DNA from: an uncultured Verrucomicrobiota bacterium
Lineage (GTDB): Bacteria; Verrucomicrobiota; Kiritimatiellia; RFP12; UBA1067
Direction: 5' to 3'
DNA length: 35,336 bases
Assembly (NCBI GenBank): GCA_946543025.1
Contig: CAMNLN010000001.1
Coordinates: 1 to 35,336 of the forward strand
Positions 1,996 through 28,899 of this stretch are shown in pieces. Both the position numbers and the translations under genes were made by a program. Position 1 is the first letter of the stretch; the number at the start of each line of letters is the position of its first letter. Under the pieces are notes generated by a model, which searched no databases, was not told the DNA's origin, and worked only from the letters and a program-made list of their open reading frames with translations.

Positions 1996-4900
1996 TTATC
2001 TGACGATGACTTGCGTGCCGTTATGATAGACGCGTACCGTCACAGCCTCGGACGCGGTGTAGTTCGCGTCGTCCGCGTACGCGACCACGCGATAGACCGC
2101 ATCTTCCGGCACACCGGTCGGCACATCGATCCAAGCGGACGTCGCGCCCGGCACAGGACGCCCATTGCGGAACCACTGGTAGCGCGTCGCGCCCGGCGCG
2201 AAGGCGTGGAGCGAAAGCGCTCCGCCCTTTCGGACGATCCCGGATACCGGTTGTTCCGTAAACACGGGGCCGTTGCCCTTCGACGCCACCGCAGGGCGCA
2301 CGAACACGTACAGGTCGCTCGTCGTGAAGCTCGCGCCGTTCGCGGCCGTCGTCCAGTCCTTCTCTGCGTCCGCCTGCTCGCTGCGGTTGCCGATGCCGAG
2401 CGAGGCATAGCGCAACGTCGTCGGTCCCGCGGACGCTCCCGTACGGGATACGGAGAGAATCACCTGGCTTTGCTGGTAGTTGTGTACCTGCAGGCAGCCG
2501 TAGCCCGGCTTGGTGGTGAAGGTCCACGAGTCGCCCCAGTCATAGACGTTGTTGCCGTCGGGGTTGGCATTGGGAATCCCCTTGGAATTTGCCTGACTGA
2601 AGTCGTGCCAGCAGAACTCGATGTTGCCGTCCGGGAAGTCGCCCGGCGTCACATGGAGAGTGCCGTCCGACCGGTAGGCGCGCACGGAGAGGTTCGTCAC
2701 GTACTCCTGGAAGTCGTTGACGCGGCGCTTCGTCGGCAAGCCGATCTTCGAGAGATCGTCCGTGAAGGCGTCCATCGACGCCCACGCCCATTGCTCCAGG
2801 CCGTCCGTGCCGACGAGGTGCAGCAAATAGGCCACACGGTCGAAGGCCATGTTTCCGAAGCGCGACTCGTCCACCGCATACGGCGCGTCCGTCCACGTGT
2901 AGCTGAACGTCGTGTGCGGGATATGCAGCAAGTTCACGAGCGTGTAGTCGCCCGCTTCCGGCACGGCCTCCGCCGTGAGGAACGCGGGAAGCGGGTCGGC
3001 GGCGGCGGTCGTGAAGGACGTGCTCGCCGTCTTCGCCTCGCCGCCGGACGTGTAGGCGCACTGGAGCGTGTAGCTCGTGGAGGCGGCGAGCGGCTCGGCG
3101 AGCGTCAGCACCACCTCGCGCGGATCGACCGGGGACGCGACGACGTTGGCCACGGCCGCGTTGCCCGACGTGAACGTCCATGCCGAAGGATCGCGCAGTT
3201 GCGGCGGCACGGTCTCGTCGAACGCCACGCTCACCTTCGTCCGGTCCAGGCTCGCGACGGCGTGGAAGATCGCGGACGGCGTCGTCTCGAACGCCACGAA
3301 CACGTAGAGGCGGCGCACGGCGTACTGGGGGGCCTTGCCGGTCTGCGTCCAGTCCTGGTTGGCCGCCGTCGAGTAGTTGCCGATGCCGATGTCCGTGTTG
3401 CCGTCGGAGTGGCGGAGCCGGCTGATGGAGATCAGCGTCTGCGCCTCGTTGTAGTTGTGGATCTGCAGGCAGCTGTAGCCGGCGGCCGTCTCGGAACTCG
3501 GCAAGTCGTCGAAGTCGTACCGGCCCGTGTTCGCGCCGATGTTGAGGCTGTTGCCCTTGCCGTACGACGAGAAGAAGAACTCGATGTTGCCGTCCGCGTA
3601 CCGGCCCTGCTTCACGCCGCTCACGTTGGAGGCGACGTCGAGGTTCGAGACGAACCGCTTGATGTTGCCGTTCGTGGCGAAGGAGTAGGAGGCGAGATCG
3701 TCCGTGAAGCCGTCGAACGCCGCCCAGCACCAGGTCGTCGTGGGCGTGGCGTTGGTCGTCGTCAGCTCCAGGTAGTATCCCACGCGCGCGACGTGCCGGC
3801 CGGCGTAGCGCGCGCGGTTGTCGACCGTATGCGCGGCCGCGTACTGCGCCGCGTTGTGGCTGTTGAACGGCGTGGGCACGTCGATCTGGTAGAGGAGCGT
3901 GTAGTCCTTCGCCTGCGGCACGTTCGCGGCCACGTGCGCGGGCACGTCCGGCTTCGGGCGTACGAGGACGTGGAGCCTCATGCTGGAGAAGTTGTCGGCG
4001 TTGTCGTATGCCTGTGTCCAGTCCGGGTTGATCGCGCCGGTCGCAGTGCGGTTCGCGCGGTACTGCGTGTTGTTGCCGATGCCGGCGCCGACCGGCTGGC
4101 CTGTGTTGCTGCCGTTGAAGTTGCTGATGCCGAAGATCGTCTGCCGGTTCGTCACGTTGTGCACCTGCATGCAGGCGTGCCACGTGGTCGCGCCGCCCGA
4201 CAAGCTGTCGCCCCAGTCGCAGGTGCCCGCCGCGTACGGGATGTGGTTGTCGTTCGCGCCGCCGTAGTTGTGCGGCCAGAACTCGAGGAATCCGCCGTCC
4301 ATCCCCGTGCCGTTCACGATGCCGTCCACGTTTGAGAACACGTCCTGGTTCGTCACCCACTTCTGCCCGAAGCCGATGCTGTCGTTCACCGGCACGCCGA
4401 ACTTCGAGAGGTCGTCCGTCCAGGCGTCGAACGAGACCCACACGAAGTTCGTCCCCGTCCCGTCCTTCTTCACCTGCTCGAAGTAGTACGCCACGCGCTC
4501 GGCGCCGTCCGGCAGGCTCCGCGTCGCGTCCATGTAGTACGGCACGCGGCTGCGCCAGTTCACGCCCTTCGTAACCGGCACGTTCAGGGAGTAGAGCGGC
4601 ACGTAGCCCGCGCGGAGCTCCGCCGGCACATGCTCGGCGACGCCCGCGGGAAGCGGACGCGCGAGCGTCAGGGTGGCGCCTGCCGCCATCGGCGTGGCGC
4701 CGTTCGCCGCCGCCTTCACGCGCGCGCCGTCCACCGTCAGATTGAAGTTGTCCGACGCCACGGCCGCCACATGGACGTGGACGAGCGAGAAGTCGACGCC
4801 GTCGCGCTCGACGGAAGTCACGTAGCCGGACGAGACGGAGAACGCCGCATCGAGGCCGTCCAGCAGCACGTCCACCGAGAACTTCACGTCCACCACCGTC

Positions 4901-6678
4901 CCGTCGTTCCCCAATGTCGGCGTGGCCGAGACGATCTCCGGCGCGGCCGTGGCGGAAGTTTCCGGCAGCACGTACACCTGGAGGTGTCGCAGGGAATACT
5001 GCCCCGCGTTGTACGTCTGGGTCCAGTCCCAGCCCTTGTTGTTCGCGTTGTAGTGCGGCCCGATGCCCAGCTCGGTCGCGTCGTTCTTTTGGAACCTGTT
5101 GTAGGTGAAAATGCAGCTGTTCGTGGTGCGGGCCGTATCGTGCACCTGCATCGAGCCGTATTCTCCGCTCGTCGGCTTGTCGTCCATGTCGTACACGGCG
5201 AGCGCCCCTTCAAGGCCGCGCGTGACAGTCCCCTCGAAGCTCACCGGCCAGAACTCGATGTTGCCGACGGCGATCGTCTCGTTCGTGCGGATGTTCGGCA
5301 CGTTGCTCCACACGCGCAGGTTCGTCACGTCCTTCTGGAACTGCCAGGCCACCGGTACGCCCACGCGCGCGGCGTCGTTCGTGAACGCGTCCATCGACAC
5401 CCACACGTACTGCATCGGTTCGCCCGCCTTCTGCAGCTCCATGTAGTAGGCCACGCGGCTGAACGCGCCGATCTTCGCCGCGTCGTCCACGGTGTAGGGC
5501 ACGGGAACCCTCCCGAAGTTGCCCTTGGCCGGGATGTCGAGGTCGTAGATGAGGCGGTAGCTGTTGAACTCCTCCGGCGGCACGTAGCGGTACGCGCCCT
5601 GCGGAAACACGCCGGGGATCGTCAGCGTCGCGTCGGCGTAAAGCGCCTTGCCGCCCGTCGCGTTGCGCACGCCGCCCTGCTTCGCCGTCACCGTGACGGG
5701 CGTGTAGTACTCGCCGGACGGGAACACGAGCATGGCCGTGCGCTGGTCGGCGGAGAGCGTGATGGTCGGCACGGCTTCCGTCCCCGACACGGTCCAGTTC
5801 GCCGCGTCGCAGGCCGTCGTGGCCGTGACCTTCTGGTTAAACGTGAAGTTGATCGCAAACGCGTCTTCGCCCACAGTTTCCGTCGTCGTCTGCACCACGG
5901 CAAGGTCGTTTTCCGTCGCGAAGTTCGCGGGGTCGGGGACGATGCTCGTGACGGCGCTCACCCAGGCGTTCGCCATGTTCGTGTAGCCCACGTCGTTGGG
6001 ATGGACTGTGTCGGCGATCTGGTCCCAGTCCGACACGGCGGCATGCATGTCGAGGAAATACGCGCCCTGCCCCTTTGCCTGCTGGCCGGCGACGATGCCG
6101 GGGATGGCGGGGTTGAACGCGTTCGTGATCGCGGCGTACTTCCAGTTGTCCTCCGTGTCGCCCGCATTTGTGTAGCGCCGCATGAGCGTGGTCACAACCA
6201 CCTTGGCGGATGGCTGGCATTCGTGGATGCGGTCGAGGAGACGCACAAGGCGGTTCGTCGCTTGGCCGCGGAACGTCGGCTCCCCATCGCCTAGGTCGTT
6301 CGTGCCGATGTGGAGGAGGATCACGTGCGGGTCGTCGATTTGCGCGAAGAAGCTCTGGATGTTCTCGTAGATGCCCTGGGTGGCGTTCGAGATCTTCCAG
6401 CTGCTGTGGCCTTCGTGGTCGCTGTCGGCGAGGAAGGGATCCTCCTTGCCGTAGTTGTCCGTCTGCGTGCCCACGTAGTCCACGTTGTAGCCGAGGTTCG
6501 TGAGCGCCACGTAGAGCGGCGCACGATAGCCGTTGCCGCGTACGGACTGCGAGCCGTGCGTAATCGAGTCACCGAGCGGCATGATGCGTAGCACGGGGTT
6601 GTCCGCCGCCGCGCCAAAGGCCAAGCTTGTCGCCAGCGCGACGATTCCCGCGGCTGCCACACGCACAATCTGTCTCAT
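1996..6678 (-). CDS. Giant secreted multidomain SGNH/GDSL esterase: signal peptide, SGNH, Ig-like spacers, 4 x unassigned module, C-terminal Ig-like domain
   Basis: 1560-aa ORF with AAGGAG SD 7 nt upstream. Signal peptide MRQIVRVAAAGIVALATSLAFGAAA. aa 28-245 carry the SGNH blocks MPLGDSITHG, GHSSW, LHIGTNDL, DTVHPND. Ig-like spacers at about aa 250-360, 575-675, 1133-1225. C-terminal Ig-like domain aa 1470-1552 (RYQWFRNG). Confidence 0.92.
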   Translation of the reverse strand: MRQIVRVAAAGIVALATSLAFGAAADNPVLRIMPLGDSITHGSQSVRGNGYRAPLYVALTNLGYNVDYVGTQTDNYGKEDPFLADSDHEGHSSWKISNATQGIYENIQSFFAQIDDPHVILLHIGTNDLGDGEPTFRGQATNRLVRLLDRIHECQPSAKVVVTTLMRRYTNAGDTEDNWKYAAITNAFNPAIPGIVAGQQAKGQGAYFLDMHAAVSDWDQIADTVHPNDVGYTNMANAWVSAVTSIVPDPANFATENDLAVVQTTTETVGEDAFAINFTFNQKVTATTACDAANWTVSGTEAVPTITLSADQRTAMLVFPSGEYYTPVTVTAKQGGVRNATGGKALYADATLTIPGVFPQGAYRYVPPEEFNSYRLIYDLDIPAKGNFGRVPVPYTVDDAAKIGAFSRVAYYMELQKAGEPMQYVWVSMDAFTNDAARVGVPVAWQFQKDVTNLRVWSNVPNIRTNETIAVGNIEFWPVSFEGTVTRGLEGALAVYDMDDKPTSGEYGSMQVHDTARTTNSCIFTYNRFQKNDATELGIGPHYNANNKGWDWTQTYNAGQYSLRHLQVYVLPETSATAAPEIVSATPTLGNDGTVVDVKFSVDVLLDGLDAAFSVSSGYVTSVERDGVDFSLVHVHVAAVASDNFNLTVDGARVKAAANGATPMAAGATLTLARPLPAGVAEHVPAELRAGYVPLYSLNVPVTKGVNWRSRVPYYMDATRSLPDGAERVAYYFEQVKKDGTGTNFVWVSFDAWTDDLSKFGVPVNDSIGFGQKWVTNQDVFSNVDGIVNGTGMDGGFLEFWPHNYGGANDNHIPYAAGTCDWGDSLSGGATTWHACMQVHNVTNRQTIFGISNFNGSNTGQPVGAGIGNNTQYRANRTATGAINPDWTQAYDNADNFSSMRLHVLVRPKPDVPAHVAANVPQAKDYTLLYQIDVPTPFNSHNAAQYAAAHTVDNRARYAGRHVARVGYYLELTTTNATPTTTWCWAAFDGFTDDLASYSFATNGNIKRFVSNLDVASNVSGVKQGRYADGNIEFFFSSYGKGNSLNIGANTGRYDFDDLPSSETAAGYSCLQIHNYNEAQTLISISRLRHSDGNTDIGIGNYSTAANQDWTQTGKAPQYAVRRLYVFVAFETTPSAIFHAVASLDRTKVSVAFDETVPPQLRDPSAWTFTSGNAAVANVVASPVDPREVVLTLAEPLAASTSYTLQCAYTSGGEAKTASTSFTTAAADPLPAFLTAEAVPEAGDYTLVNLLHIPHTTFSYTWTDAPYAVDESRFGNMAFDRVAYLLHLVGTDGLEQWAWASMDAFTDDLSKIGLPTKRRVNDFQEYVTNLSVRAYRSDGTLHVTPGDFPDGNIEFCWHDFSQANSKGIPNANPDGNNVYDWGDSWTFTTKPGYGCLQVHNYQQSQVILSVSRTGASAGPTTLRYASLGIGNRSEQADAEKDWTTAANGASFTTSDLYVFVRPAVASKGNGPVFTEQPVSGIVRKGGALSLHAFAPGATRYQWFRNGRPVPGATSAWIDVPTGVPEDAVYRVVAYADDANYTASEAVTVRVYHNGTQVIVR
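2293..5592 (-). repeat. Four protein-level copies of an unassigned ~210-225-aa module inside the SGNH gene (approx nt 4966-5592, 3955-4632, 3289-3924, 2293-2967)
   Basis: Each copy shares YxL[IVL]Y/NxLx[IV]P, RV[AG]Y[YL][MFL]E/H[LQ], W[VCA]W[VA]S[MF]DA[FW]T[ND]D, G[NF][IL]EF[WFC], [YH][GSA][SC][ML]Q[VI]H[ND], GIG[NP], and a terminal LxV[YLF]V strand. The DNA copies are diverged, not recent duplicates. Confidence 0.8.
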
Positions 6679-6739
6679 GTCTTTGCTCCTTCTTCCTTCA
6701 ACCTACAATGTCTAGGCGAACACATTTTGACTTGGCAAC

Positions 6740-6768
6740 AACATACCACATCCTCGTATTTTTCGCAA
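6740..6768 (-). promoter_or_regulatory. Sigma70-type promoter for the SGNH-MFS-phosphoesterase unit
   Basis: Minus strand reads TTGCGA (6763-6768), a 17-nt spacer ending TGg, then TATGTT (6740-6745). This predicts a leader of about 55 nt before ATG 6678. Confidence 0.5.
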
Positions 6769-6812
6769 GAACGCCGTGCCGACAGGCGAAATCCCCGCAC
6801 ATCGCGGATTTG

Positions 6813-6821
6813 TGGTAAACT
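6813..6821 (+). promoter_or_regulatory. Extended -10 element upstream of the small C3H-repeat gene
   Basis: TGgTAAACT at 6813-6821. There is no good -35. ATG lies 44 nt downstream. Confidence 0.3.
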
Positions 6822-6864
6822 AGGCGCGGGTTGCCCGCGAAAGGATGCCCGAAAGGAACACGAC

Positions 6865-7287
6865 ATGAAGAAACTGACGATCACGTTCGCCGCCGGCCTG
6901 ATGGCCGCCATGGCCTTCGCCGCGCAGTGCGCGGGTACGAACCAGGACGGCAATCGCTGCAAGCGCGACGCCGCCGAAGGCAGCAAGTACTGCATCGGCC
7001 ATGCCCACCAGGCGAAGCCGTCCGCACAGTCCAAGGAGAAGGACGACGGACACTGCTGGGCCGTCACCGCGGCCGGTACGCGCTGCAAGCACAAGAAAGT
7101 CGGCGAAACCGACTATTGCGCCCAGCACGCCGCCGACAAGAAGCCCGCCAAGCCCGTGGACCAGTGCTGCGCCATGACCTGGGAAGGTACGCGCTGCACG
7201 CGCAAGCCGGACGAAGGCTACCGCTACTGCTCGCAGCACCGCAAGTCGGCCGCCGCAGACAAAAAGCCCGCCCCCGCGAAAAAGTAG
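6865..7287 (+). CDS. Small basic signal-peptide protein with three tandem C-x9-C-x10-C-x2-H (WRC-like C3H) repeats
   Basis: ATG 6865 preceded by AAGGAA 7 nt upstream; the track start at 6727 is an upstream extension. MKKLTITFAAGLMAAMAFAA signal. Repeats are CAGTNQDGNRCKRDAAEGSKYCIGH (6928-7002), CWAVTAAGTRCKHKKVGETDYCAQH (7054-7128) and CCAMTWEGTRCTRKPDEGYRYCSQH (7165-7239), separated by K/P/A-rich linkers. Confidence 0.75.
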   Translation: MKKLTITFAAGLMAAMAFAAQCAGTNQDGNRCKRDAAEGSKYCIGHAHQAKPSAQSKEKDDGHCWAVTAAGTRCKHKKVGETDYCAQHAADKKPAKPVDQCCAMTWEGTRCTRKPDEGYRYCSQHRKSAAADKKPAPAKK

Positions 7288-11720: not shown

Positions 11721-12533
11721 TCACTTGGCGCCGTCGGCCTTGATCGCCTTGAGCAGGGCCATCGGATAGTCGGAGGTCGTGCAGTCGCACCCTGCCGCCT
11801 TCGCGGTCTTCCATGTCTCGAGGTCCTGCACCATCCAGCCCGTCACCTTCATGCCGTTGTCGTGCGCGTAGTCGACGATCTCCTTGTCCGTCACGCGCCC
11901 CTTCTTGTCCTTCATGAGCGGCGCCACGCGGCAGCAGCCGAGCGACTTGGCCGTGTCCACGAAGTCCTTCGTCAGCGCCTCGCCGCGGATGTAGCCGGTC
12001 GGCGCGTCGGGGAACAGTCGCTTCATCGTCTTCAGGGCCGGCGGGTGGAAGGAGGTGAAGGTATACGTGCCGGGCTTGAGCGTGGCCACCGCCATGTCAT
12101 GCAGCTGGCGGCAGTAGGTCTCCAGGTTCTCGCCCTCGTAGAACTTGCCGGACGCCTTCATCTCAAGCTCGATGTCCACGTCGGCGCGGCCCTTGAACAC
12201 GTCCATCACCTGCTGGGCGCTCGGCGCCTTCTCGCGGGAACGCTTCATCACGAGGCTCGTCACCTCGTCGAAGGACATCTCCTCCACCACGCCCTTCCCC
12301 TCCGTCGTACGCTCCACCTTCGCATCGTGCATGACGACCAGCTTGAGGTCTTTCGTCATGCGGAAGTCGGTCTCGAATCCCGTCAGACCCGCGTCGAGGC
12401 ACTTCTGGAAGCCGCCCGCCGCGTTGTCGTCGTACTCGTGGCGTCCGCCACGATGCGAAAGCACGCGCGGCAGCTCCGCCGCCACGACACACATCGACGA
12501 GACCAGCACCACCGCCATCATTAGTCTTTTCAT
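11721..12533 (-). CDS. Secreted glycerophosphodiester phosphodiesterase (GDPD family)
   Basis: ATG 12531-12533 with AAGGAG 7 nt upstream. MKRLMMAVVLVSSMCVVAA signal. LSHRGG...GFETDFRMTKDLKLVVMHD GDPD signature. The track start at 12920 is a spurious Arg/Gly-rich extension. Confidence 0.88.
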   Translation of the reverse strand: MKRLMMAVVLVSSMCVVAAELPRVLSHRGGRHEYDDNAAGGFQKCLDAGLTGFETDFRMTKDLKLVVMHDAKVERTTEGKGVVEEMSFDEVTSLVMKRSREKAPSAQQVMDVFKGRADVDIELEMKASGKFYEGENLETYCRQLHDMAVATLKPGTYTFTSFHPPALKTMKRLFPDAPTGYIRGEALTKDFVDTAKSLGCCRVAPLMKDKKGRVTDKEIVDYAHDNGMKVTGWMVQDLETWKTAKAAGCDCTTSDYPMALLKAIKADGAK

Positions 12534-12571
12534 CTTTGAACTCCTTTGCTTCTTGGAAAGTTTTGCGGTAA

Positions 12572-13918
12572 TTATACCATAAATGCGGCGAGTATCTTCT
12601 CCGCCCACGTCATCGAGAGGCGGAACTGGTCGAGACCGTACGACTCGTTCGGCGAGTGGATGCGGTCCTGCGGCTGGCCCCAGCCCACAAGGAGCGGCGC
12701 CGCGCCGCTGCACTGCCGCAGCACGGACACGACGGGGATCGACGCGCCGTCCCACTGGAACACCGGCCCGCGCGGGTCCATCTCCTCCAGAACCGCCGCC
12801 GCCAGGCGGAACACCGGCGAAGCGAGCGGCAAGCGAAACCCGGCCGCCTCGCCCGTCACGTCCTCGATGAAGAGGCGCATTCCGCGCGGCACGTGCCGCC
12901 GAAGATGCCGCTCCACGCACACCATCGCCTCGTCCGGCCGCTGCCCCGGAACGAGGCGCATCGAAAGCTTCGCGAGCGCGGAGGCCGGAATCACCGTCTT
13001 CGAGCCGGGGCCGCCGTAGCCCGTGTGGATGCCGTTCACCTCAATGGTCGGACGGAACGAGTTGCGCTCCGTGGGCGTGAGGCCCTCCTCGCCGCCCACG
13101 GGCGGACAGCCCATCTCGGCCTCGTAGCGCGCGTCGCTCATCGCCGCCGCCTCCGCCGCCGCGCGCTCGTCGTCCGTCGGCGGCTCCACCCGGTCGCAGA
13201 AGCCGCGCACGGCGATCGAGCCGTCCGGCGCGTGCAGGCTCGCGATCAGCTCCGCCATGCCCTGCGCGGGGTTCGGCGCGATGCCGCCGAACTCGCCGGA
13301 ATGGAGATCGTGGCTGGCCGCCTCCAGGCGCACGGTGAAATGGCTTACGCCGCGCAGGCCGGCGACGATGGCCGGACGCAAGTCCGCCGCCGCGCTCGTG
13401 TCGCACACGAGCAGCATGTCCGCGCGCAGACGATCCTTGATCGTCGGGGCGAGCGCCGCAAGGGCCGTGCTGCCGCTCTCCTCCTGCCCTTCCAGCACGA
13501 CCTTCACGGTGGGCAATGCCGCGCCAGACTCGATCAGCTTCCTCAGCCCGCAGAGGAATGCGAACCACTGCCCCTTGTCGTCCTGCGCCCCGCGCGCGTA
13601 GACGCGGCCGTCGTCCTTCAGCGTCGGCTCGAAGGGTGGCGTCTCCCACGCGTCGAGCGGATCGGGCGGCTGCACATCGTAATGGCCGTAGAAGAGGATG
13701 GTCGGAGCGTGCTCGGCGCCCTTCCGTTCCGCGAAAAGGATCGGTGGTGTGCCGAGCATTCCCGGCGCCTGGTGCAGCTCGCCCACGAAACCGAGCGCCG
13801 CCAGCCACTTTTTGATCCACATCGCGCAGTCCACGCAGTCGCGCAGACGCTTCGGCTCCGCCCCGACGGTCGGGAAGCGCAGCAGTTCGAAATATTCCTT
13901 GAGAATCGCGTCGTCCAT
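12572..13918 (-). CDS. M20-family metallopeptidase/dipeptidase (ArgE/DapE/CPG2 clan)
   Basis: MDDAILKEYFELLRFPTVGAE start. YGHYDVQP, RGAQDDKGQ and LEGQEESGS metal-binding blocks. The track start at 14032 is an extension across the promoter. Confidence 0.88.
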   Translation of the reverse strand: MDDAILKEYFELLRFPTVGAEPKRLRDCVDCAMWIKKWLAALGFVGELHQAPGMLGTPPILFAERKGAEHAPTILFYGHYDVQPPDPLDAWETPPFEPTLKDDGRVYARGAQDDKGQWFAFLCGLRKLIESGAALPTVKVVLEGQEESGSTALAALAPTIKDRLRADMLLVCDTSAAADLRPAIVAGLRGVSHFTVRLEAASHDLHSGEFGGIAPNPAQGMAELIASLHAPDGSIAVRGFCDRVEPPTDDERAAAEAAAMSDARYEAEMGCPPVGGEEGLTPTERNSFRPTIEVNGIHTGYGGPGSKTVIPASALAKLSMRLVPGQRPDEAMVCVERHLRRHVPRGMRLFIEDVTGEAAGFRLPLASPVFRLAAAVLEEMDPRGPVFQWDGASIPVVSVLRQCSGAAPLLVGWGQPQDRIHSPNESYGLDQFRLSMTWAEKILAAFMV

Positions 13919-14057: not shown

Positions 14058-17000
14058 CTAGTGGAAACTGATGACGAGGCCCATCCGCCTCTTCCACTGC
14101 CACGTCAGGCGGATCGGTGCGGCACCCTTCGTCACCGTACAGGACTCGCCCCACTCCGTGGCGGTCTTGACCCATCCGCCGCCGATCAACGCCTCAATCG
14201 TGTACTTTGGCAGAAAGTTGTTGCCGTCCACGGTCACCGGTGCCGCCGAGAACGTCCAAGCACCCGTCAGTTCGTATTCGCCATCCGCAACAGAACTCGT
14301 CGCCGCCACGCCTTCGGCCGGCGGTTCGTTGACCACGACGACATCGACGTAGTTCGTGAACGCGTCTCGGTAGCGGATATCGTCAACCTTGCGGTTCTGC
14401 GCGATCTCCGCGTCCGTGAGCGCGCGGTTGTAGATGCGCAACGAGTAGTAGTCGCCCGTCATGCAACGCTTCGTGCGGTCGACGCCCGTGTAGGTGTTGG
14501 GCGCGCCGATGGCCATCTTTTTGGATGGGAAATCAAGAAAGTTCACGCGGGCATAGCTGATGCCGTCCGCACGCTCAACGCCCTGAAACAAGCAATGGTT
14601 GGTAGGCGTTACGATGTTGGTCAAGTACCTTCCGTCCCAGTTCGAAAGCTTCAACCGCGGTGTCCCTAGCCAGTTGTCGCACTTGATCTCGAGCGTTTTG
14701 CCGGTATTACGCGTAAAAATGCAGTAATCGCCCGAGCCGAAGCCGAAGTAAAGCGGGAAGTCCGTAGTCTGCGCCGCGAACGGGACGTCCAGCGCGGCCT
14801 GGATGGAGCATTCCATGCCGAGGGAGATGTTTTCCTGCATCTGGAAGAAGCTTTCCTCCGCCGCCGTGAAGTGGTGTCCCTTCTCGATCCACGCCGCGAA
14901 GCTGGTGTTCGATGCGGCGATCATGTCGTTCGCGCGATAGGAGAGGTCGTGCCAGAAAATGGATTTCTTCGAATGGGCGTTGCGGGCGCCGCAGTTGCGG
15001 GTGCCGTCGTAGTGCGCCACAAGCCCCTGCTGCACGTAGTCGGAAACATCGTAGTCCGTCGCCGCGCGCAGGCCCGCCGTCAGTGTCCAGAGCCAGGTGA
15101 TGCGGCGGTTGGGCTGGCCTGTTGTGCCTGTGATCGCGGCCGAACGCTGTTCGGCCATCAGGACTGGATTTTCCCACATCCGCTTCGCGGCGTTCCAGGT
15201 TTCCAGGCGGTAGCCCGCACAAGCGTAGGCGCAGGTGCCCACGGTGGCGGTGGCAGGGGCCGTGAAGGTCTTCGTGCCCGTACCGCGCACGAGCCAGCCG
15301 CCCTCGTCCTCCAGCGCAATGCCGGGCACCTCGGAGCGCACTTCCACGAGGTCCGTCTCGGTCGAGAGCCCCGCCGTGCCGTAGAAACGCGCGTAGTCGA
15401 TCTCCTTGTTGCGGCGTAGTTCAGCCACCGTCAGCACGCGGTCATAGACGCGGACGGCGTGGATCCGGCCCTTGAACATGCGTTTCGTCCTCTCCGCCGC
15501 GGTCGACCAGGCGGTGCCGATGCAGTAGCGGTACGAGACGGGAGGGGCCTGGAAGGTGCCGTTCCACCACGACTGCGACGCGTCTGCCGTGAAGCTCACC
15601 CGGTTGTAGTCGATGAGAACGTTGGCGATGCGCCCATTCCAGGGCTGGAGCACGCGGGTCGCGTCATTGATCGGATTCGACCTGAAGATCAGCCTGTCCC
15701 CGCGCCGGTCGTTGCCGCTGCCGGAGTACGGCGTGTACGTGTAGAAGCCGAACACGTCGCCGTTGCAGCTCGCGCCAAACGGAGACGGCCAGTTGTTCGT
15801 CTGGTGCGTGGCGTCGTAGTCGGCGACGATCTGCACCGTCACCTGGTTCGTGAGGGCGACTGCCGCGCCCGTGACGAAGCAGTCGCCGGCGGCGAAGTCG
15901 TAGCCGTCGGACGCCCAGGCACCGAGACGGTCGGCGACGACCGTCTCGCGCGTCGCGTCCGGTCCAGGACAAAGGTTTTTCCATGTCGTCGCTGCGCCGT
16001 CGTGCGGCAGTCCTAGCCCCGCGTTGCGGATGCCGTCGAAGTTCAGGACAAGCCCCGCCTGCACATAGTCGTCCGCGTCGTATTTCTTCACGCCGTTCTT
16101 CAGACGCCAGTTCCACGTGAGGCGCACCCTCGAACGCGCCGTGCAGTTGGTGTAGGCGAACGAAGTGCCCTCGTATTCCCCGACGAGGTCCCATTTGCCC
16201 TTCTCGTCCGTCCATGTCTCCAGCTTGTAGCCCGTCGGCTCCCATTCGTTGCCGTCCGCCGCCGTGCTCGCTGACGCGGAGAAGACATGGTGCCCGTTCA
16301 CGACGTACTTGCCGTTCGCCTCCACCCCCTCGGCGCCGGCGACATTCGACCCGACGACGACGTTGGCGTTCCCGTCCGAGCCGTGGTAGCGCACATCGTC
16401 CACCATTCGGTTCCACGCCAGCTCGTCCTCGGAGAGCACGCGGGCATACATGCGCACCGAGTAGAACGTGCCCTTCACGCCGTTGTTGTTCGAGCCCTGG
16501 ACGGAGCCGCCCCAGGTGAACCGCTTGCCTGGAACCGCCGTGTTTGCGGTTCGGGTCTTCGCATTTGCGTAGGTCGTTCCCTGGAAAAGCCACGAGTAGC
16601 CGTCGCCCAGAACGGACGTTGCGTACATGCCTGCCCAAGACCCCTGCTGGGGACGGCTTTTCGTCCCCACGAAATCATCGTTCTTGAATTGCAGGGTTGT
16701 CGACTTGGTGTCGCTGTTGTTGTTGTTGGGGAGAAAGACCGAGTACTTGTCGTCTGGCGAGACGAACATCGTCGGGAACCACGACGGACTGTTGCCCGTA
16801 CTCTGCTCTGATGTTTTCACGTCCATCGCAAGCTGGACCGTGGAGAACGGACCAAGCGTGACGGCCGCGTCAAGATATGCATACTCACCCTTGGCGGCAC
16901 CGGTGAAATAGAAGCCCTTCCCGTCTTTCCACGAACCGCCGCTCGAATGGATCGTCGCGTCCGGACCGTCCACGACGAGGTTCTTCCACGTGGTCGCCGT

Positions 17001-17999
17001 CGGATCGTGCGGCAGCGCCGCGCCCGCGTTGCGGATGCCGTCGAAGTGCGCCACAAGGCCGTTCGTCACGTACGCTCCAACGTCGAGGCACGTCGCGCCG
17101 GCCGGCAGGGAGTCGTCGTAGATCTCGGCCCACGCGAGAATCTCCGTGGCGAGGGCCGCCTTCATCGCGCCGCCCCGATCGGTGGTGATCGCGTTCACGC
17201 CCATCTGCGCGTACCTGAGCGCGTCCGCGTCGCTGTTCGGCGTCCAGACGGCGAACGCGTAGCCCGCCGCCTTCACGGCGGCGACGTCCTCTGCCGTGTA
17301 GGTCGCCGAGTGGAGGATATCCACGCCCGTCGCGTCGCACGCCTCGATGCTCGAAACAAGGCTCGCGCCCGTGTACGTGCCGCCGCTCAGGAGCAGCCAC
17401 GCCTCGTAATCGGGCAACGCCTGGCGGACGTCGCGGACGAGGTTCGCGTCGAACGCGATAAACACGACGCGCTCCTTCGTGGCGAGCGGCTGCGCCTGGA
17501 CGGCCGCCACGACGGCGTTCACGAGCCCGTTCGCGCCGTTTCCCTTCAGCTCCACCACACACTTCGTCGTCTCGTTCGACGCGAGGAGCGCAAGATAGTC
17601 CTCGAACTTCGGCAGCGTCTCGCCTGCCCACTCGGTCCCGATCCAGTTGCCAAACGCGCCCACGCGCACGTCCTTGAGCTCGTCCCACGAGGAAGCCGTC
17701 ACGGCGAGGTTCGTACCGGAGCCGGCGGTGCGCCCGGTCGTCGAATCGTGGATGATCACGGGCACGCCGTCGGTCGTGGCGTATACGTCGCACTCCACGC
17801 CGTCTACCCCTCGCTCGAACGCGAGACGAAACGCCGCCATCGTGTTCTCCGGACGATCTTGAGATTCGCCCCTGTGCGAGACGATCTGCGGCATTTCCAC
17901 GGCACCGGCCGCCAACGCAAGGCATGTCGCCATTCCGGCCGCCAGACGCGCGCAAGCATTGCGCCCGCCGCGTGTTTTGTCGGTTTCAAGCGTTCCCAT
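14058..17999 (-). CDS. Giant secreted GDPD phosphodiesterase fused to three LamG (ConA-like) + small beta-sandwich modules
   Basis: ATG 17997-17999 with GGAGA SD. Signal/anchor RNACARLAAGMATCLALAAGAVE. GDPD domain (nt 17169-17894): IVSHRGESQDRPENT...ECDVYATTDGVPVIIHD. Three modules (approx nt 16104-17075, 15084-16070, 14088-15044) each open with YVxxGLVxxFDGIRN...W(K/H)(N/D)L and close with the LamG_3-like tail [RL][MVI]Y(A/D/N)R(V/A)L(S/T)xxE(L/I). A GY(K/R)LETW...W...(R/L)(L/I)TWxW domain follows; in module 3 its opening is degenerate (YTIEALIGGGW) though the closing IRLTWQW is kept. Confidence 0.9.
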   Translation of the reverse strand: MGTLETDKTRGGRNACARLAAGMATCLALAAGAVEMPQIVSHRGESQDRPENTMAAFRLAFERGVDGVECDVYATTDGVPVIIHDSTTGRTAGSGTNLAVTASSWDELKDVRVGAFGNWIGTEWAGETLPKFEDYLALLASNETTKCVVELKGNGANGLVNAVVAAVQAQPLATKERVVFIAFDANLVRDVRQALPDYEAWLLLSGGTYTGASLVSSIEACDATGVDILHSATYTAEDVAAVKAAGYAFAVWTPNSDADALRYAQMGVNAITTDRGGAMKAALATEILAWAEIYDDSLPAGATCLDVGAYVTNGLVAHFDGIRNAGAALPHDPTATTWKNLVVDGPDATIHSSGGSWKDGKGFYFTGAAKGEYAYLDAAVTLGPFSTVQLAMDVKTSEQSTGNSPSWFPTMFVSPDDKYSVFLPNNNNSDTKSTTLQFKNDDFVGTKSRPQQGSWAGMYATSVLGDGYSWLFQGTTYANAKTRTANTAVPGKRFTWGGSVQGSNNNGVKGTFYSVRMYARVLSEDELAWNRMVDDVRYHGSDGNANVVVGSNVAGAEGVEANGKYVVNGHHVFSASASTAADGNEWEPTGYKLETWTDEKGKWDLVGEYEGTSFAYTNCTARSRVRLTWNWRLKNGVKKYDADDYVQAGLVLNFDGIRNAGLGLPHDGAATTWKNLCPGPDATRETVVADRLGAWASDGYDFAAGDCFVTGAAVALTNQVTVQIVADYDATHQTNNWPSPFGASCNGDVFGFYTYTPYSGSGNDRRGDRLIFRSNPINDATRVLQPWNGRIANVLIDYNRVSFTADASQSWWNGTFQAPPVSYRYCIGTAWSTAAERTKRMFKGRIHAVRVYDRVLTVAELRRNKEIDYARFYGTAGLSTETDLVEVRSEVPGIALEDEGGWLVRGTGTKTFTAPATATVGTCAYACAGYRLETWNAAKRMWENPVLMAEQRSAAITGTTGQPNRRITWLWTLTAGLRAATDYDVSDYVQQGLVAHYDGTRNCGARNAHSKKSIFWHDLSYRANDMIAASNTSFAAWIEKGHHFTAAEESFFQMQENISLGMECSIQAALDVPFAAQTTDFPLYFGFGSGDYCIFTRNTGKTLEIKCDNWLGTPRLKLSNWDGRYLTNIVTPTNHCLFQGVERADGISYARVNFLDFPSKKMAIGAPNTYTGVDRTKRCMTGDYYSLRIYNRALTDAEIAQNRKVDDIRYRDAFTNYVDVVVVNEPPAEGVAATSSVADGEYELTGAWTFSAAPVTVDGNNFLPKYTIEALIGGGWVKTATEWGESCTVTKGAAPIRLTWQWKRRMGLVISFH

Positions 18000-18024
18000 C
18001 TTTATCTCCTCTGTTGCGACTTCA

Positions 18025-18053
18025 AATTTATCAAATCGCGTCGGTGGCGACAA
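18025..18053 (-). promoter_or_regulatory. Sigma70-type promoter for the GDPD-LamG gene
   Basis: Minus strand reads TTGTCG (18048-18053), a 17-nt spacer ending TGa, then TAAATT (18025-18030). This gives a leader of about 19 nt containing the SD. It argues against the track start at 18053. Confidence 0.5.
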
Positions 18054-23047: not shown

Positions 23048-23899
23048 TTACCCTTCTTTGAGGGTTCCGGTCAAGGCGAGAAGTACGTCTTCTTCCGTGA
23101 CCACCCCCAGCTCCGCGCCAGTCGTCTCGTCGCACACCACTGCCACCGGACTGCGGTTTCGCCGCATGAGCGGCAGGATGTCGTCGCCGTGCGTCATCGC
23201 CGGGATGCAGAAATGTCCCGCCTTTCCGGGGCGGCGGTATTCCTTCAGCTCCGCGAGGTTCTTCTCGGTGGCCGCGTGCATGAGGTCCTTCGCAAACGTC
23301 GCCTGCAGCATCAGCACGCGGTCGATCAGCCGCCGCTCAAACTGCGTGAGGCGCGTCGCGTCGTGGCGGTCGGCCACCAGCATCCGCAGGCCGTCGCGCG
23401 AGACGCCCAGCCGCAGGGAACGCGGCTGCCGCACACGGAAGACGACGCGCACGAACGCCGAGAACGCCGCCACCGGCACCGCCAGGATCGTCGCCGCCAC
23501 GCGATAGGGTTGCGCGGCCAGCAAGGAACGGCGGAGCGGGCGCGAAGCGAAGATCAGCTTCGGCAGGTACTCGCCCAGGAACAGCATCAGCACGGCCGCT
23601 ACGAGAGACCATACCGACCGCGCGGCCGGCATGTTCCAGAAGAGGCGCGCGCCAAGCGCCGCCGTCGCGGTGGAAAACAGCACGGACGCCAGGTTGTTCC
23701 CCACGAGCAGCGTCGTCAGCACGCGCGACATGTCGCCCAGGATCCGAGCCAGACGCTTCGCGCGCGGCGCGGACTGGCGTACGAGCGAGAGAAGCCGAAC
23801 GCGCGGCACGGAGAGGAAGCCCGTCTCCACGCCCGCGAAGAATCCAGCCGCCGCCACGGAAACGCCCATGAGGAGAAAAAGGATCGCCGTCTTCATCAT
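23048..23899 (-). CDS. CNNM/DUF21 transmembrane domain protein with reduced CBS region (CorB/GldE-like paralogue 2)
   Basis: FFAGVETGFLSV, LLVGNNLASV and LGEYLPKLIF are DUF21 signatures, followed by a short cytosolic CBS-like tail. ATGA overlap with the upstream paralogue at 23896-23899. Confidence 0.8.
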   Translation of the reverse strand: MMKTAILFLLMGVSVAAAGFFAGVETGFLSVPRVRLLSLVRQSAPRAKRLARILGDMSRVLTTLLVGNNLASVLFSTATAALGARLFWNMPAARSVWSLVAAVLMLFLGEYLPKLIFASRPLRRSLLAAQPYRVAATILAVPVAAFSAFVRVVFRVRQPRSLRLGVSRDGLRMLVADRHDATRLTQFERRLIDRVLMLQATFAKDLMHAATEKNLAELKEYRRPGKAGHFCIPAMTHGDDILPLMRRNRSPVAVVCDETTGAELGVVTEEDVLLALTGTLKEG

Positions 23900-24870
23900 C
23901 GGTCGTCGTCCTCCTCGTCGTCGATCACGGGCTTGACGATCAGCTCAAGGATGTCCCCGCGCGTGATAATGCCCGCCGTACCGCCCCAGCGATCCTCCAC
24001 CAGGGCGATGCGCCGCCCCGTCTTCATGAAGAGGACAAGCAGATCGTCGAGGCCCTGATGCTCCGAGACGCGCAGCGGCGTGTCCGTGGCCGCCGCCACA
24101 TCCCGCGCCGGATCCGCCAGAAGGCGTTCCGTATCTAGGAAACCCTCGATGTGGTCCATGTCGTGCCGGTAGACCGGCAGGAACGGATAGTCGGATTCCT
24201 CCGCAAGCCGCACCTTCTCGGCGTCGGGCAGCGTCGCCTCAACGCCTGTGAGCCGTACGCGCGGCGTCATCTCGTTGAGCGCATAGAGATCCGGGAGTCG
24301 CATCACGCCCTCCACCATCGATGCCTCCTCGCGGTCGAGCTCGCCCGTCGCCGCGGCAGATTCCACCACCGCCCGCAGCTCGTCGTCCGAGAGCGCGCGC
24401 CGCTCCCGCGCGAGCAGGTCGCCGAACACGCGCGAACCGGCCACCATCAGCACGGAGAACGGCTTGAGAACAACCCGCCAGAACAGCAGCATCCGCACGC
24501 AGAAAGCCGCCATCCTCTCCGCATGGCGCATCGCGTACTGCTTCGGCAGAATCTCGCCAAACACCAGCAAAAGGAGCGTGAACGTCGCCACCGACACCGC
24601 CGCCGTCCCCGTTTCCACGAACCGCAGCGTCAGCATGTAGCCGAGCGAGGCGATCGCGAAGTTGACGAGCGTGTTGCCCGCGAGGATCGTCGAGAGGATG
24701 CGCGCCGGCTCCTTCTGCCAGCCGCCGATCCGCCGGGCGACGGACGGCTTCACGCGCTCCAGCGCCTGCAGCTGGCGCGGCGTCAGCGAAAACAGCACCG
24801 TCTCCGCCGAGGAAAAAAACGCTGAGAGCGCGAAGAGGACGACCAGGACTGAAACGAGGGCTGCGACCAT
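23896..24870 (-). CDS. CNNM/DUF21 + CBS-pair protein (CorB/GldE-like paralogue 1), no CorC_HlyC domain
   Basis: FFSSAETVLFSL, ILAGNTLVNF and FGEILPKQYA (DUF21). CBS pair (VMRLPDLYALNEMTPR...GIITRGDILE). Acidic tail DDEEDDDR. Confidence 0.85.
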   Translation of the reverse strand: MVAALVSVLVVLFALSAFFSSAETVLFSLTPRQLQALERVKPSVARRIGGWQKEPARILSTILAGNTLVNFAIASLGYMLTLRFVETGTAAVSVATFTLLLLVFGEILPKQYAMRHAERMAAFCVRMLLFWRVVLKPFSVLMVAGSRVFGDLLARERRALSDDELRAVVESAAATGELDREEASMVEGVMRLPDLYALNEMTPRVRLTGVEATLPDAEKVRLAEESDYPFLPVYRHDMDHIEGFLDTERLLADPARDVAAATDTPLRVSEHQGLDDLLVLFMKTGRRIALVEDRWGGTAGIITRGDILELIVKPVIDDEEDDDR

Positions 24871-26892: not shown

Positions 26893-28899
26893 TCACTTGG
26901 AATCCTTTAGCCCGCGGGCGAACGCGCGTACGCATTCAAACCACTCGTCTGGCGTACGGAAGCGTCCCGCGCCCGTCCAGCCGGCGCCCACCCAGTAGGT
27001 GAACGTGGCCGACGGCTGCAGCAGATAGATGCAGTTCTCCGCGTCGGAGGCGACCACGGGGCGCGCCTCGCCGGGCGGCAGCACGATCGCCGTGAGGACG
27101 GATCCGTTCTCCTTGTCGTCCACACCCTCCGGCTCGAAGTTCGCGATGAAGCCATTCTCCAGGTCGACCTTGAGGATGCCGTCGTGCTGGCGCTTTGCGG
27201 AAATGTCGAGGCCCGGACCGATCATGCGCGCGGGCTGCTCGCCCTTCGGCGTCACGTCGAACCGCATGAACGGCGTCCCGACCGTGACCGTGCCGCGCAC
27301 GACGTACGTCTCGTACTCCAGCTCGAACACGGCCTCGGTCGCCGTCTTGGAGATGACGCGCTGCGCCTTCCAGTTCTTCTCGTGGAACCAGCCGTCGCGG
27401 TTCAACGCGCCGATGCCGCCGACGCCGCGCCCCTTCGCCACCTTGTAGTTGTCCATTCCCTTGCCGTGGTTCTTGTGGTAAGAGCCTTCCGAACCGTGCA
27501 GCCACTTCTCCAGCACCGGATACGGCACGCACTTGTTGAACAGGTCGAAGCCGCTCGAGACGAGGCCCTGCCCCTTCGGCGCAGGCTCCATGATCACGGG
27601 GCCGTACGCGCGCATGCCGAAGTGGTCGTTCTCCCAGTAGAAGTCGTCCATGCGGTAGGGCGCGTAGCCACAGTCTACCGCCGCCACCGGGAGCGGCTCA
27701 AGACGGCTGAAGCGCAGCAGGGCCTCGAGGAAGTAGTAGTCCGCGTAGTTGAGGGGCACGTCAACCTCGCTGTTGCCCGGCTTGTGGCCGACGGAATGCA
27801 TCAGCAGGAAGTCGCCGTTCTCGCCCTGCTTGGCGAAGTAGGCGGACGAGGCCATCGCCGTAAGCATCTTCACGGCGGCGGCGCGGTACTTCGCCGCCTT
27901 CGACGGAGGTGCGAACGCCTGGAGCTCGAGGAGCGCGCTCGCGGTGACCGCAGAGGCTGAGACGTCGCGCTCCTCTCCGGGGAAGGAGAAGTCCCACCAG
28001 GAGATGCCGTCCTCGGGGAGGTTCGGCTCGTCGAGCCAATAGTCCGCCGCGCTCATCGCGCGCTCGAGGTATTTCTTCACGCGCGTCTCGCGATACATCA
28101 TGGTGAAGCCGTAGATGCCCCAGGCGTGCCCGCGCGCCCAGGTGCCCTCGACGTTGCCGCCCTGGCCGGAATAGTGGGCGCGCACGCGGCAGGTGACCGG
28201 ATCATAGTCGAGGATGTGGTAGGCGCTGCCGTTCGGACGGTAGTGGTGCGCGTCCGTGACGTCGGCCTGACTGCGCGCGATCTTGTCCGACTTCGGATCG
28301 CCGCCGTTCTTCGCGTCCCACTCGAGGAGCTCGAGGTTCATCATGTTGTCGATGATCACGATGTACTTCGTGCCGAAGTGGCCGCCGCCCTTCTTGGGCG
28401 AGTTCCAGCTACGGATGAGGCCGAGCTTGTCGTCGTAGCGCGTGCGGAGCGCGGCGGAGGTGTCGTGCAGAAACTCGGCGTAGCGCTTGTCTCCCGTGAG
28501 GCGAAGGCCGTTGCCGGCAGAGCAGTAGGTACGGAAGCCCACGTCATGGTTGCTCGCGTCGTGGCGCAACGGCTCGATCAGCCGTTCGGTGTAGGCCGCG
28601 GCCTGCTCCTTCCAGAACGGGTCTTTCGTGTACTCGTAGAGATACCACAAAGAGCCGGGGAAGAATCCGCTGCACCAGTCCTTCGGCGGGATGACGACAA
28701 GCTTGCCGTCCTGGAAGCGCTTCGGGAACCTGTCCGGCTCCTGCGCCTTCATCGCCTCAAGCAGGGCACGGTAATGGTCCGTCGCCTTCGCGAAGATGGA
28801 TGGCAGCTGCGCCGCAAGCGTCGCCTCGTCGGCCGGGACGGCGGCCTGCGTCGCAAACGAAACCGCCGCGACAAGAGTAGCAATCATGAGGTTCTTCAT
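26893..28899 (-). CDS. Secreted GH88 unsaturated glucuronyl hydrolase fused to a C-terminal DUF4861 domain
   Basis: Signal MKNLMIATLVAAVSFATQAA. GH88 blocks NHDVGF, IIDNMMNLELL, WARGHAWGIYGF (about nt 27715-28827). C-terminal ~265 aa with FYWENDHFGMRAYGP, typical of DUF4861 (about nt 26893-27702). Confidence 0.85.
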   Translation of the reverse strand: MKNLMIATLVAAVSFATQAAVPADEATLAAQLPSIFAKATDHYRALLEAMKAQEPDRFPKRFQDGKLVVIPPKDWCSGFFPGSLWYLYEYTKDPFWKEQAAAYTERLIEPLRHDASNHDVGFRTYCSAGNGLRLTGDKRYAEFLHDTSAALRTRYDDKLGLIRSWNSPKKGGGHFGTKYIVIIDNMMNLELLEWDAKNGGDPKSDKIARSQADVTDAHHYRPNGSAYHILDYDPVTCRVRAHYSGQGGNVEGTWARGHAWGIYGFTMMYRETRVKKYLERAMSAADYWLDEPNLPEDGISWWDFSFPGEERDVSASAVTASALLELQAFAPPSKAAKYRAAAVKMLTAMASSAYFAKQGENGDFLLMHSVGHKPGNSEVDVPLNYADYYFLEALLRFSRLEPLPVAAVDCGYAPYRMDDFYWENDHFGMRAYGPVIMEPAPKGQGLVSSGFDLFNKCVPYPVLEKWLHGSEGSYHKNHGKGMDNYKVAKGRGVGGIGALNRDGWFHEKNWKAQRVISKTATEAVFELEYETYVVRGTVTVGTPFMRFDVTPKGEQPARMIGPGLDISAKRQHDGILKVDLENGFIANFEPEGVDDKENGSVLTAIVLPPGEARPVVASDAENCIYLLQPSATFTYWVGAGWTGAGRFRTPDEWFECVRAFARGLKDSK

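Follow-up and report, generated by a model that had tools for sequence, protein, structure and literature searches.

A CE3-like SGNH esterase from an uncultured Kiritimatiellia bacterium carrying four copies of an undescribed beta-rich module, a candidate glycan-binding domain

The window considered here is a stretch of 35,336 nt (positions 1 to 35,336 of contig CAMNLN010000001.1, assembly GCA_946543025.1) from an uncultured member of the Verrucomicrobiota (Kiritimatiellia; RFP12; UBA1067). Towards its start, on the reverse strand, lies a gene for a large multidomain esterase with a predicted signal peptide, in which an SGNH head is followed by four copies of one module, M1 to M4, by spacers and by an Ig-like tail (Table 1). 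The enzyme is a new CE3-like member of the SGNH esterases, CE3 being carbohydrate esterase family 3, and its plan is that of a modular carbohydrate esterase to which a novel accessory module has been added. Scanned as a whole against Pfam, the protein shows the GDSL head and is then blank over aa 355–1465 except for a weak Big_5 match (aa 1133–1224). More than 1,000 of its 1560 residues are thus without a Pfam assignment, and NCBIfam adds none. The exact protein sequence is present in public collections, within a 52-member 90% cluster whose named members are called 'hypothetical protein [Kiritimatiellae bacterium]' at NCBI. Long open reading frames (ORFs) on other frames overlap the gene, as is usual at a G+C content of 65–66%, which commonly yields such by-products.

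Table 1. Domain layout of the esterase gene in the window, and two-unit fusion genes at related loci
Feature	Position	Strand	Basis
Whole gene: secreted multidomain esterase, 1560 aa	1996..6678	(-)	ORF list; ATG start, stop codon 1996-1998
Putative signal peptide, ~aa 1-24, MRQIVRVAAAGIVALATSLAFG/AA...	6607..6678	(-)	Read by eye: basic N-region, hydrophobic core, A-x-G/A site
SGNH (GDSL_2) esterase head, CE3-like, aa 29-244	5947..6594	(-)	Pfam Lipase_GDSL_2 and 2VPT match
Spacer 1, aa 245-358, beta-rich, probably Ig-like	5605..5946	(-)	No Pfam match here; equivalent is Big_5 in 26/86 related heads
Module M1, aa 359-573	4960..5604	(-)	Hidden Markov model (HMM) envelope; AlphaFold model
Spacer 2, aa 574-675, beta-rich	4654..4959	(-)	No significant Pfam match
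Module M2, aa 676-909, GFLEFW variant	3952..4653	(-)	HMM envelope; abuts M3
Module M3, aa 910-1130, WCWAAFDGFTDD and GNIEFF variants	3289..3951	(-)	HMM envelope; AlphaFold model
Spacer 3, aa 1131-1235, bacterial Ig-like (Big_5)	2974..3288	(-)	Pfam Big_5 when scanned alone
Module M4, aa 1236-1463	2290..2973	(-)	HMM envelope; BLASTP to M3 E 5.2e-35
C-terminal Ig-like domain, YQWFRNG at aa 1500, end ...NGTQVIVR	1999..2289	(-)	Weak Ig_3 match, E 0.012
Two-unit fusion genes at related loci	L006 5400-14585; L037 6366-15995; L014 6459-15734; L025 6195-14582; L039 6315-13436		

The head is matched by two Pfam models, Lipase_GDSL_2 (PF13472) at aa 35–232 with E 7.5e-14 and 53 bits against a cut-off of 32.9, and Lipase_GDSL (PF00657) with 37.1 bits against a cut-off of 23.6. 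The head retains each of the four SGNH blocks intact, namely GDS with S38, G90 in DHEGHSSW, GTND with N127, and D223-T-V-H226. The top sequence match among solved structures is 2VPT (E 5.1e-20 over aa 29–244), which carries the PDB title 'lipolytic enzyme', and the next are the acetyl esterase entries 5B5S and 5B5L (E 2.5e-9 and 5.4e-9). We take 2VPT to be the CE3 acetyl-xylan esterase of C. thermocellum, and 5B5S and 5B5L to be CE3 enzymes as well. Judged from its intact blocks and its closest solved structures, the head is probably a CE3-like carbohydrate O-acetylesterase and is predicted to be active. The NCBIfam model AxeC2 gives 17.9 bits on the protein (cut-off 500), and no Pfam match to SASA, the sialate O-acetylesterase domain, is found in it.

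An initial annotation of the gene, made by reading the sequence and its ORFs, had proposed four diverged copies of a module interleaved with Ig-like spacers. The repeat is real. In pairwise BLASTP comparisons the modules share 31.6–35.5% identity over 212–238 columns with E values from 2.4e-21 to 5.2e-35 (M2 against M1, M3 and M4: 4.7e-29, 2.2e-25 and 4.2e-28), and the four-way alignment has 31 invariant columns; by sequence comparison, the similarity is far beyond chance. The motifs originally quoted are all present, but as a consensus with copy-specific variants and not as exact repeats. Copy by copy, RVAYYxEL reads RVAYYMEL, RVAYYFEQ, RVGYYLEL and RVAYLLHL; GNIEFW reads GNIEFW, GFLEFW, GNIEFF and GNIEFC; and MQVHN reads MQVHD, MQVHN, LQIHN and LQVHN, with GIGN in three copies and GIGP in one. 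The interleaving with Ig-like spacers is less clear-cut. Spacer 3 passes the threshold of Big_5 (PF13205; cut-off 23.6) when taken alone, with 24.4 bits and E 5e-5, and falls below it in the whole-protein scan (21.2 bits). M2 and M3 adjoin without a spacer, and spacers 1 and 2 have no Big_5 match in Pfam. The tail does contain the YQWFRNG from which an Ig domain had been read, but its likeness to Ig_3 is weak. No C-terminal PEP-CTERM domain (PF07589) is matched by Pfam in this protein. As had been claimed, the copies are diverged at the DNA level, where identity is limited to patches of 20–110 nt, 60–90% identical, beneath the conserved motifs. Such short patches being all that is left, the array is therefore not a recent duplication.

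Structure prediction with AlphaFold2 gives confident models for M1 (63-sequence multiple sequence alignment; pLDDT 93.1, pTM 0.91) and for M3 (42-sequence alignment; pLDDT 89.8, pTM 0.90). The two models agree with each other, having about nine long strands in the same order and a few short N-terminal helices. According to these models, the module is an independently folding beta-rich domain of ~220 aa, as its earlier definition as a module had assumed.

The module is, furthermore, a family undescribed in Pfam, NCBIfam, the PDB and the searchable literature, and it has no detectable relative among solved structures. Pfam and NCBIfam, searched at E<=1 over aa 355–1465, with isolated modules and with stand-alone members of the family, give no family model, and no module-covering Pfam family is found among 165 relatives and segments scanned. 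Sequence-profile searches of the PDB with profiles of 4 and 42 sequences return zero matches at E<=10. The bar for structural similarity was set at a Foldseek E<=1e-3 or a TM-score >=0.5; the M1 and M3 models have no match in the PDB at E<=1e-3 (best E 0.011 and 0.016, TM-scores <=0.34), and one module model searched against BFVD has none at E<=1e-3 either. Full-text literature searching found no description of the module. A preprint on an Akkermansia sulfatase reports a 'new CBM family' (CBM, carbohydrate-binding module), but this is an unrelated, Akkermansia-restricted beta-helix. The initial view that the module stands outside known families is supported by these searches. The suggestion that it is of 'jelly-roll or lectin-type' is not, since no jelly-roll, ConA-like, CBM or lectin structure is matched.

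The weak Foldseek matches contain one recurring theme, the fibrinogen-related domains (FReDs), which are top for both models and are considered again later in the text. Likeness to PL7 alginate lyases, through a Q(I/V)H motif, and to glycoside hydrolases of family GH16, through a motif with E on a strand, was dropped as motif coincidence because neither jelly-roll fold is among the Foldseek matches (GH16 entries score 0.13–0.16 in TM). Matches to LolA, lipocalins and beta-barrels, with TM-scores of ~0.15–0.25, were taken as noise.

The family is large. When 1.84 billion representatives were searched exhaustively with a profile, 1,854 clusters (50% identity) were matched at E<=1e-3 and 1,059 at E<=1e-30; family proteins carry up to 8 modules, and the longest is of 7,889 aa. 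A search with two short peptide patterns, using one genome per species, gives 381 confirmed stretches. The family is found mainly in the PVC bacteria (the group of Planctomycetes, Verrucomicrobia and Chlamydiae). Over M1 the window gene is 98% identical to metagenome-assembled genomes (MAGs) of Kiritimatiellae from goat omasum and cattle rumen, and the more distant members belong to Kiritimatiellia, other Verrucomicrobiota (Akkermansiaceae, Luteolibacter, Chthoniobacter), Lentisphaerae/Victivallales and Planctomycetes, together with some MAGs labelled Myxococcales. A complete single-module protein of 291 aa, P0037, is present in the transcriptome of the choanoflagellate Didymoeca costata (EukProt EP00039); it may derive from contaminating bacterial prey or from horizontal transfer.

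The layout of the window gene recurs across phyla. When a module HMM is run over 80 fetched loci, the recurrent arrangement is a head of ~340 aa, modules at ~350–570, 680–890, 895–1120 and 1220–1450, and a total length of ~1,550 aa. Four-module genes often occur in tandem paralogue arrays, and proteins with 7–8 modules (2,400–3,200 aa) consist of two complete [SGNH + 4 modules] units joined end to end, in which the internal gaps of ~400 aa are themselves GDSL_2 esterase domains. Comparison of 34 four-module proteins shows that the best match of a module in another protein is the module at the same position for 135 of the 136 modules. The set of four modules is therefore older than the split between these lineages, with each position kept distinct. 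As far as sequence comparison can tell, this shows long-term selection on each copy, and it bears out the old, selected multivalency that had been proposed. At two loci with relatives 81–83% identical to the window gene over M1, the four-module gene has immediately upstream of it an additional gene of 580–595 aa that encodes an SGNH head and a single module (L004 5124–6908, L005 5163–6902). In the window this additional gene is absent, and its place is taken by a small gene of divergent orientation.

Conservation within the module is concentrated in a few motifs. Across the same 136 modules, conservation reaches 98–100% at each of the four positions for the arginine and tyrosine of RVAY, the glutamate of GNIEF, the two aspartates of YDxxD, the glutamine and histidine of MQVH, the G-I-G motif, and the aspartate and threonine of DWT. 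Mean-field direct-coupling analysis (DCA) of 858 non-identical modules (effective number of sequences, Meff, 724; 23,436 pairs) produces antiparallel ladders that fit the AlphaFold strands, in the order A(20–26)-Z(209–218)-B(51–62)-C(67–76)-D(98–108)-E(113–125)-F(160–167)-G(170–176). It also produces a hydrophobic core in which V70 and V72 couple with V163, L172 and F173, which points to a two-layer beta structure. The residues N121, E123, W125, Y129, D146, D149, Q162, H164, D198, W199 and T200 form a mutually coupled group at DCA ranks 44–270, with E123–H164 at rank 44, Y129–T200 at 59, E123–D149 at 97, E123–Q162 at 109 and E123–D198 at 118. The equivalent residues of M1 are N473, E475, W477, F481, D497, D500, Q511, H513 and D551-W552-T553. 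By strand alternation the group lies on the sheet face opposite the core. For a second invariant group (Y18, R53, A55, E59, S73 and D75), the coupling partners lie in the N-terminal helices and in adjacent strands, and this group looks structural.

The initial annotation had picked out the D, E and H of DAFTDD, EFW and QVH as a possible metal or catalytic site. Part of this choice stands, in that the E of EFW and the Q and H of QVH fall into one co-varying cluster, with YDxxD and D-W-T as their partners. DAFTDD lies outside the cluster. Its first D is coupled to an adjacent strand and seems to have a structural role, and its final DD is not conserved across the family.

The company kept by the module is restricted. 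Of 86 heads or inter-unit regions from related loci, 82 have Lipase_GDSL_2 and 26 also have Big_5; the set was fetched with patterns derived from M1-like modules and over-samples the architecture of the window protein. A single match to GH43 is the sole other catalytic domain seen. Among 59 multi-copy representatives, SASA occurs in 11, PEP-CTERM in 8 and GDSL in 5, and Ig-like domains occur too. Among 20 large proteins with 2–3 modules, SASA is present in 9 and GDSL in 6, and the remaining partners are non-catalytic surface repeats (PATR, LamG_3, PKD, Ig, cadherin, FG-GAP and RTX). The stand-alone members, of 240–300 aa, are secreted with a signal peptide, often end in PEP-CTERM and keep the link to esterases. 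The gene row around P0023 is an example, consisting of a SASA esterase that itself ends in a module, followed by two module genes. On the domain matches seen, the catalytic partners of the module are almost exclusively O-acetylesterases (GDSL/CE3-like or SASA), either fused to it or encoded in the same operon.

This association has left a trace in the databases. Stand-alone or module-only proteins that have no SASA domain (P0006, P0007, P0009, P0016, P0023, P0126, P0221, P0222 and P0258) carry the Joint Genome Institute (JGI) label 'sialate O-acetylesterase', probably because SASA fusions and operons carry the module. The label has probably been transferred from the SASA–module fusions and is likely to be an annotation error. 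A quite different setting is found in the Gemmata protein P0227, where a Pkinase domain (71–329) is followed by one transmembrane helix (~362–385) and a module (~410–623). Here a Hanks-type Ser/Thr kinase has the module as its extracytoplasmic part, in the position of a sensor or ligand-binding domain.

On balance, we favour the view that the modules are a new family of non-catalytic glycan-binding modules, possibly assisted by Ca2+, that give the esterase multivalent targeting. In the scheme we propose, a secreted CE3-like SGNH O-acetylesterase would be lengthened by Ig-like spacers and by the four modules, each of which would present a putative surface site. One strand would supply N-x-E-x-W to this site and the strand paired with it Q-x-H, with two loops adding the Y-D-x-x-D aspartates and D-W-T, respectively. 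The site would bind its ligand in the manner of a CBM, perhaps with Ca2+ held by the four carboxylates, and the ligand would be either the glycan from which the esterase removes acetyl groups or the acetylated epitope of that glycan. With four differentiated copies set on flexible spacers, the protein would gain avidity, and the esterase would be kept in place on a substrate that is polymeric or particulate.

The functional reading of the module rests on context, from which we infer binding rather than catalysis, the involvement of Ca2+ and the glycan nature of the ligand alike. Binding is the best-supported reading. It is favoured by the presence of 2–8 copies per protein, which is typical of avidity-type binding modules, and by the display of the module as a PEP-CTERM passenger, its use as a kinase ectodomain, its adhesin-type companions and its near-exclusive pairing with two different families of O-acetylesterases. 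The make-up of the site agrees, as four carboxylates, an amide, a histidine and two or three aromatic residues on a sheet-plus-loop surface are typical of sugar binding. Because the partners are restricted to acetylesterases and do not include glycoside hydrolases as a class, there is a hint that the recognized epitope involves the acetylated sugar itself.

Several observations weigh against this view. Over ~1,850 clusters the residues E, D, D, Q, H and D are invariant to a degree beyond that of most CBM families, one that would also suit the active site of an enzyme, and secreted stand-alone copies are equally to be expected of a small enzyme. The site geometry was derived from covariation together with strand alternation, and where columns are nearly invariant their coupling may mean co-loss instead of contact, although in either case it marks the coupled residues as a single functional unit. 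The PDB profile searches and the Foldseek searches of the PDB and BFVD found no structural or sequence relative of known function. The genomic surroundings give no hint of a substrate either, in that clustering of 346 neighbour ORFs from ~75 loci found no conserved neighbour family, none occurring in more than 4 loci. Finally, the kinase fusion is seen in a single cluster, and the over-sampling of this architecture mentioned earlier affects the count of GDSL partners.

The strongest of the alternatives, that the modules are themselves catalytic, takes up the first of these objections. The module would be a new family of glycoside hydrolase, lyase or second esterase type that uses the invariant carboxylates and histidine, and the whole protein would be a machine that deacetylates its substrate and then cleaves it. 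The six residues E, D, D, Q, H and D are invariant at 98–100% in each copy and position and co-vary as one site, the secreted and PEP-CTERM-ended stand-alone forms have the size of a small enzyme, and operons that pair the module with SASA esterases would fit sequential enzymes too. It would, however, be unusual for a polypeptide to repeat a single catalytic domain four to eight times in tandem; the module takes the ectodomain position in a Ser/Thr kinase, its companions other than esterases are adhesin-type repeats, and Foldseek finds no likeness to any enzyme fold in the PDB. We therefore regard a catalytic module as unlikely. About as doubtful is the more far-reaching proposition that the module is either a new enzyme family, whose E/D/D/H site would cleave the glycan after deacetylation and give the polypeptide five active sites, or a Ca2+-dependent lectin that reads O-acetylated sugars. 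We know of no dedicated bacterial module for glycan cleavage after deacetylation, or for the reading of O-acetylated sugars.

A second alternative is that the modules serve adhesion or anchoring, binding the envelope or matrix of the producer, or another cell or host surface, and so holding the esterase at the cell surface without recognizing its substrate. The concentration of the family in PVC bacteria would agree with this, as would the presence of the module in very large adhesin-like proteins that bear repeats of the PATR, cadherin, PKD and RTX types. The ends of the proteins also suggest surface sorting. Orthologues from Kiritimatiellia and Lentisphaerae end, after the Ig-like domain, in approximately [PLN]-x-G-T-[VLMQ]-[ILFV]-x-[LVF]-[RQHK] followed directly by the stop codon (NGTQVIVR in the window protein), a motif read from the gene ends at 1999–2040 of the window and at L009, L011, L018, L020, L023, L026, L029, L030, L035, L043, L047, L067 and L072. 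Orthologues from Verrucomicrobiota end in a different small domain, '...DP.PP...AFYR...P', again followed by the stop. These endings may be lineage-specific sorting or anchoring signals. Anchoring by the modules is nevertheless improbable: many members already possess a dedicated PEP-CTERM anchor, on which the module is a passenger; a generic anchor should be joined to other classes of enzyme, whereas the partners are almost only acetylesterases; and four differentiated, position-specific copies exceed what anchoring needs.

The last alternative, a very divergent form of a known lectin or CBM fold and specifically a bacterial FReD of the acetyl-binding kind (ficolin, FIBCD1), is very improbable, and membership of the FReD family (PF00147) was rejected on hhalign, Pfam, TM-score and cysteine evidence: Angptl3 (6eua) is the top Foldseek match (E 0.011–0.016, probability 0.75–0.77), FGL1, FIBCD1, L-ficolin and angiopoietins are also listed, and the binding of acetyl groups by FReDs, which have a Ca2+ site nearby, would fit an acetylesterase partner, but the TM-scores are 0.24–0.34 with root-mean-square deviations of 8.5–12 A, PF00147 is unmatched in the window protein and in the 165 relatives and segments scanned, hhalign gives the module profile a probability of 0.2–0.3% against ficolin-2 and of 0.23% against a shallow ficolin profile (mammalian ficolins 79–84% identical to the first sequence), and the module alignments have no conserved Cys whereas 12 aligned ficolin FReDs keep five invariant ones.

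Comparison with known systems helps to place the glycan-binding reading. The closest enzymes are the CE3 acetyl-xylan esterases (CtCes3-1, 2VPT; the Talaromyces enzyme, 5B5S), which share the SGNH head with the GDS, EGHS(G/S)W, GTND and DxxH blocks and are likewise modular and secreted. Known CE3 enzymes carry dockerins or established CBMs, whereas the appendages of the window protein are the four copies of an undescribed domain and Ig-like spacers; the likeness is one of sequence. SASA esterases (PF03629) are the other SGNH-fold family that repeatedly has the module, at the C-terminus or in an operon, but the window protein has no SASA domain and the module itself has no similarity to SASA. 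Tandem CBM arrays resemble the window protein in having repeated, autonomous, beta-rich domains of ~200 aa on spacers beside a carbohydrate-active domain, with a site of aromatic and polar residues. The module differs from them in having no match to a solved CBM, a more strictly conserved site and partners restricted to acetylesterases, and the likeness is known from sequence and models. FReD lectins (ficolins, FIBCD1, angiopoietin-like proteins) are similar in size (~220 aa) and are the top, non-significant Foldseek neighbours, although the module is not a member. The sensor domains of Hanks-type kinases, such as PASTA in PknB, share with the module of Gemmata P0227 the arrangement of kinase, transmembrane helix and ectodomain. 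The module is unrelated to PASTA in sequence, NCBIfam matches only the kinase part of P0227, and the comparison is with one example.

Deacetylation is a gate to the degradation of many polysaccharides of plant, host and microbial origin, and to our knowledge the way in which acetylesterases find their acetylated substrate is poorly understood. The present family runs through the PVC bacteria, including glycan degraders of gut, rumen, soil and aquatic habitats, and travels almost exclusively with two acetylesterase families that are unrelated in sequence. Definition of its ligand would add a new family of accessory modules, one that is probably new as a CBM family and may have a new fold, and would put right the 'sialate O-acetylesterase' labels by which stand-alone modules are now misleadingly named. 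It would also provide a handle on the diet of the abundant and mostly uncultured Kiritimatiellae of the rumen. Our view of these enzymes would change only if the module were catalytic or acetyl-specific; otherwise the result is useful for annotation and for the biology of carbohydrate-active enzymes.

The neighbours of the esterase gene in the window include an MFS transporter, an FAD oxidoreductase, Ham1, GH2, GDPD, M20 and LpxC, and they contain no clue to the substrate. Further features were noted among the other genes. Divergent from the esterase gene, at 6727–7287 (+), is the gene for a 186-aa Cys-rich repeat protein with a hydrophobic N-terminus and matches to DUF5763 (E 5.8e-10), WRC and zf-C3Hc3H. 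A 1331-aa protein encoded at 14058–18053 (-) combines GDPD (aa 60–293) with Laminin_G_3 (aa 421–546) and has ~780 C-terminal residues without a Pfam assignment; a second GDPD gene adjoins at 11721–12920. DUF4861 (E 2.6e-40) forms the C-terminus of a 668-aa protein, the N-terminal 400 aa of which have no assignment, and two tandem CNNM-domain membrane proteins are encoded nearby (coordinates 26893–28899 (-), 23048–24870 (-)). Finally, a 763-aa ORF at 30616–32907 (+) contains Mur ligase domains of the MurC type together with a C-terminal MurB_C domain and is an apparent MurC–MurB fusion.

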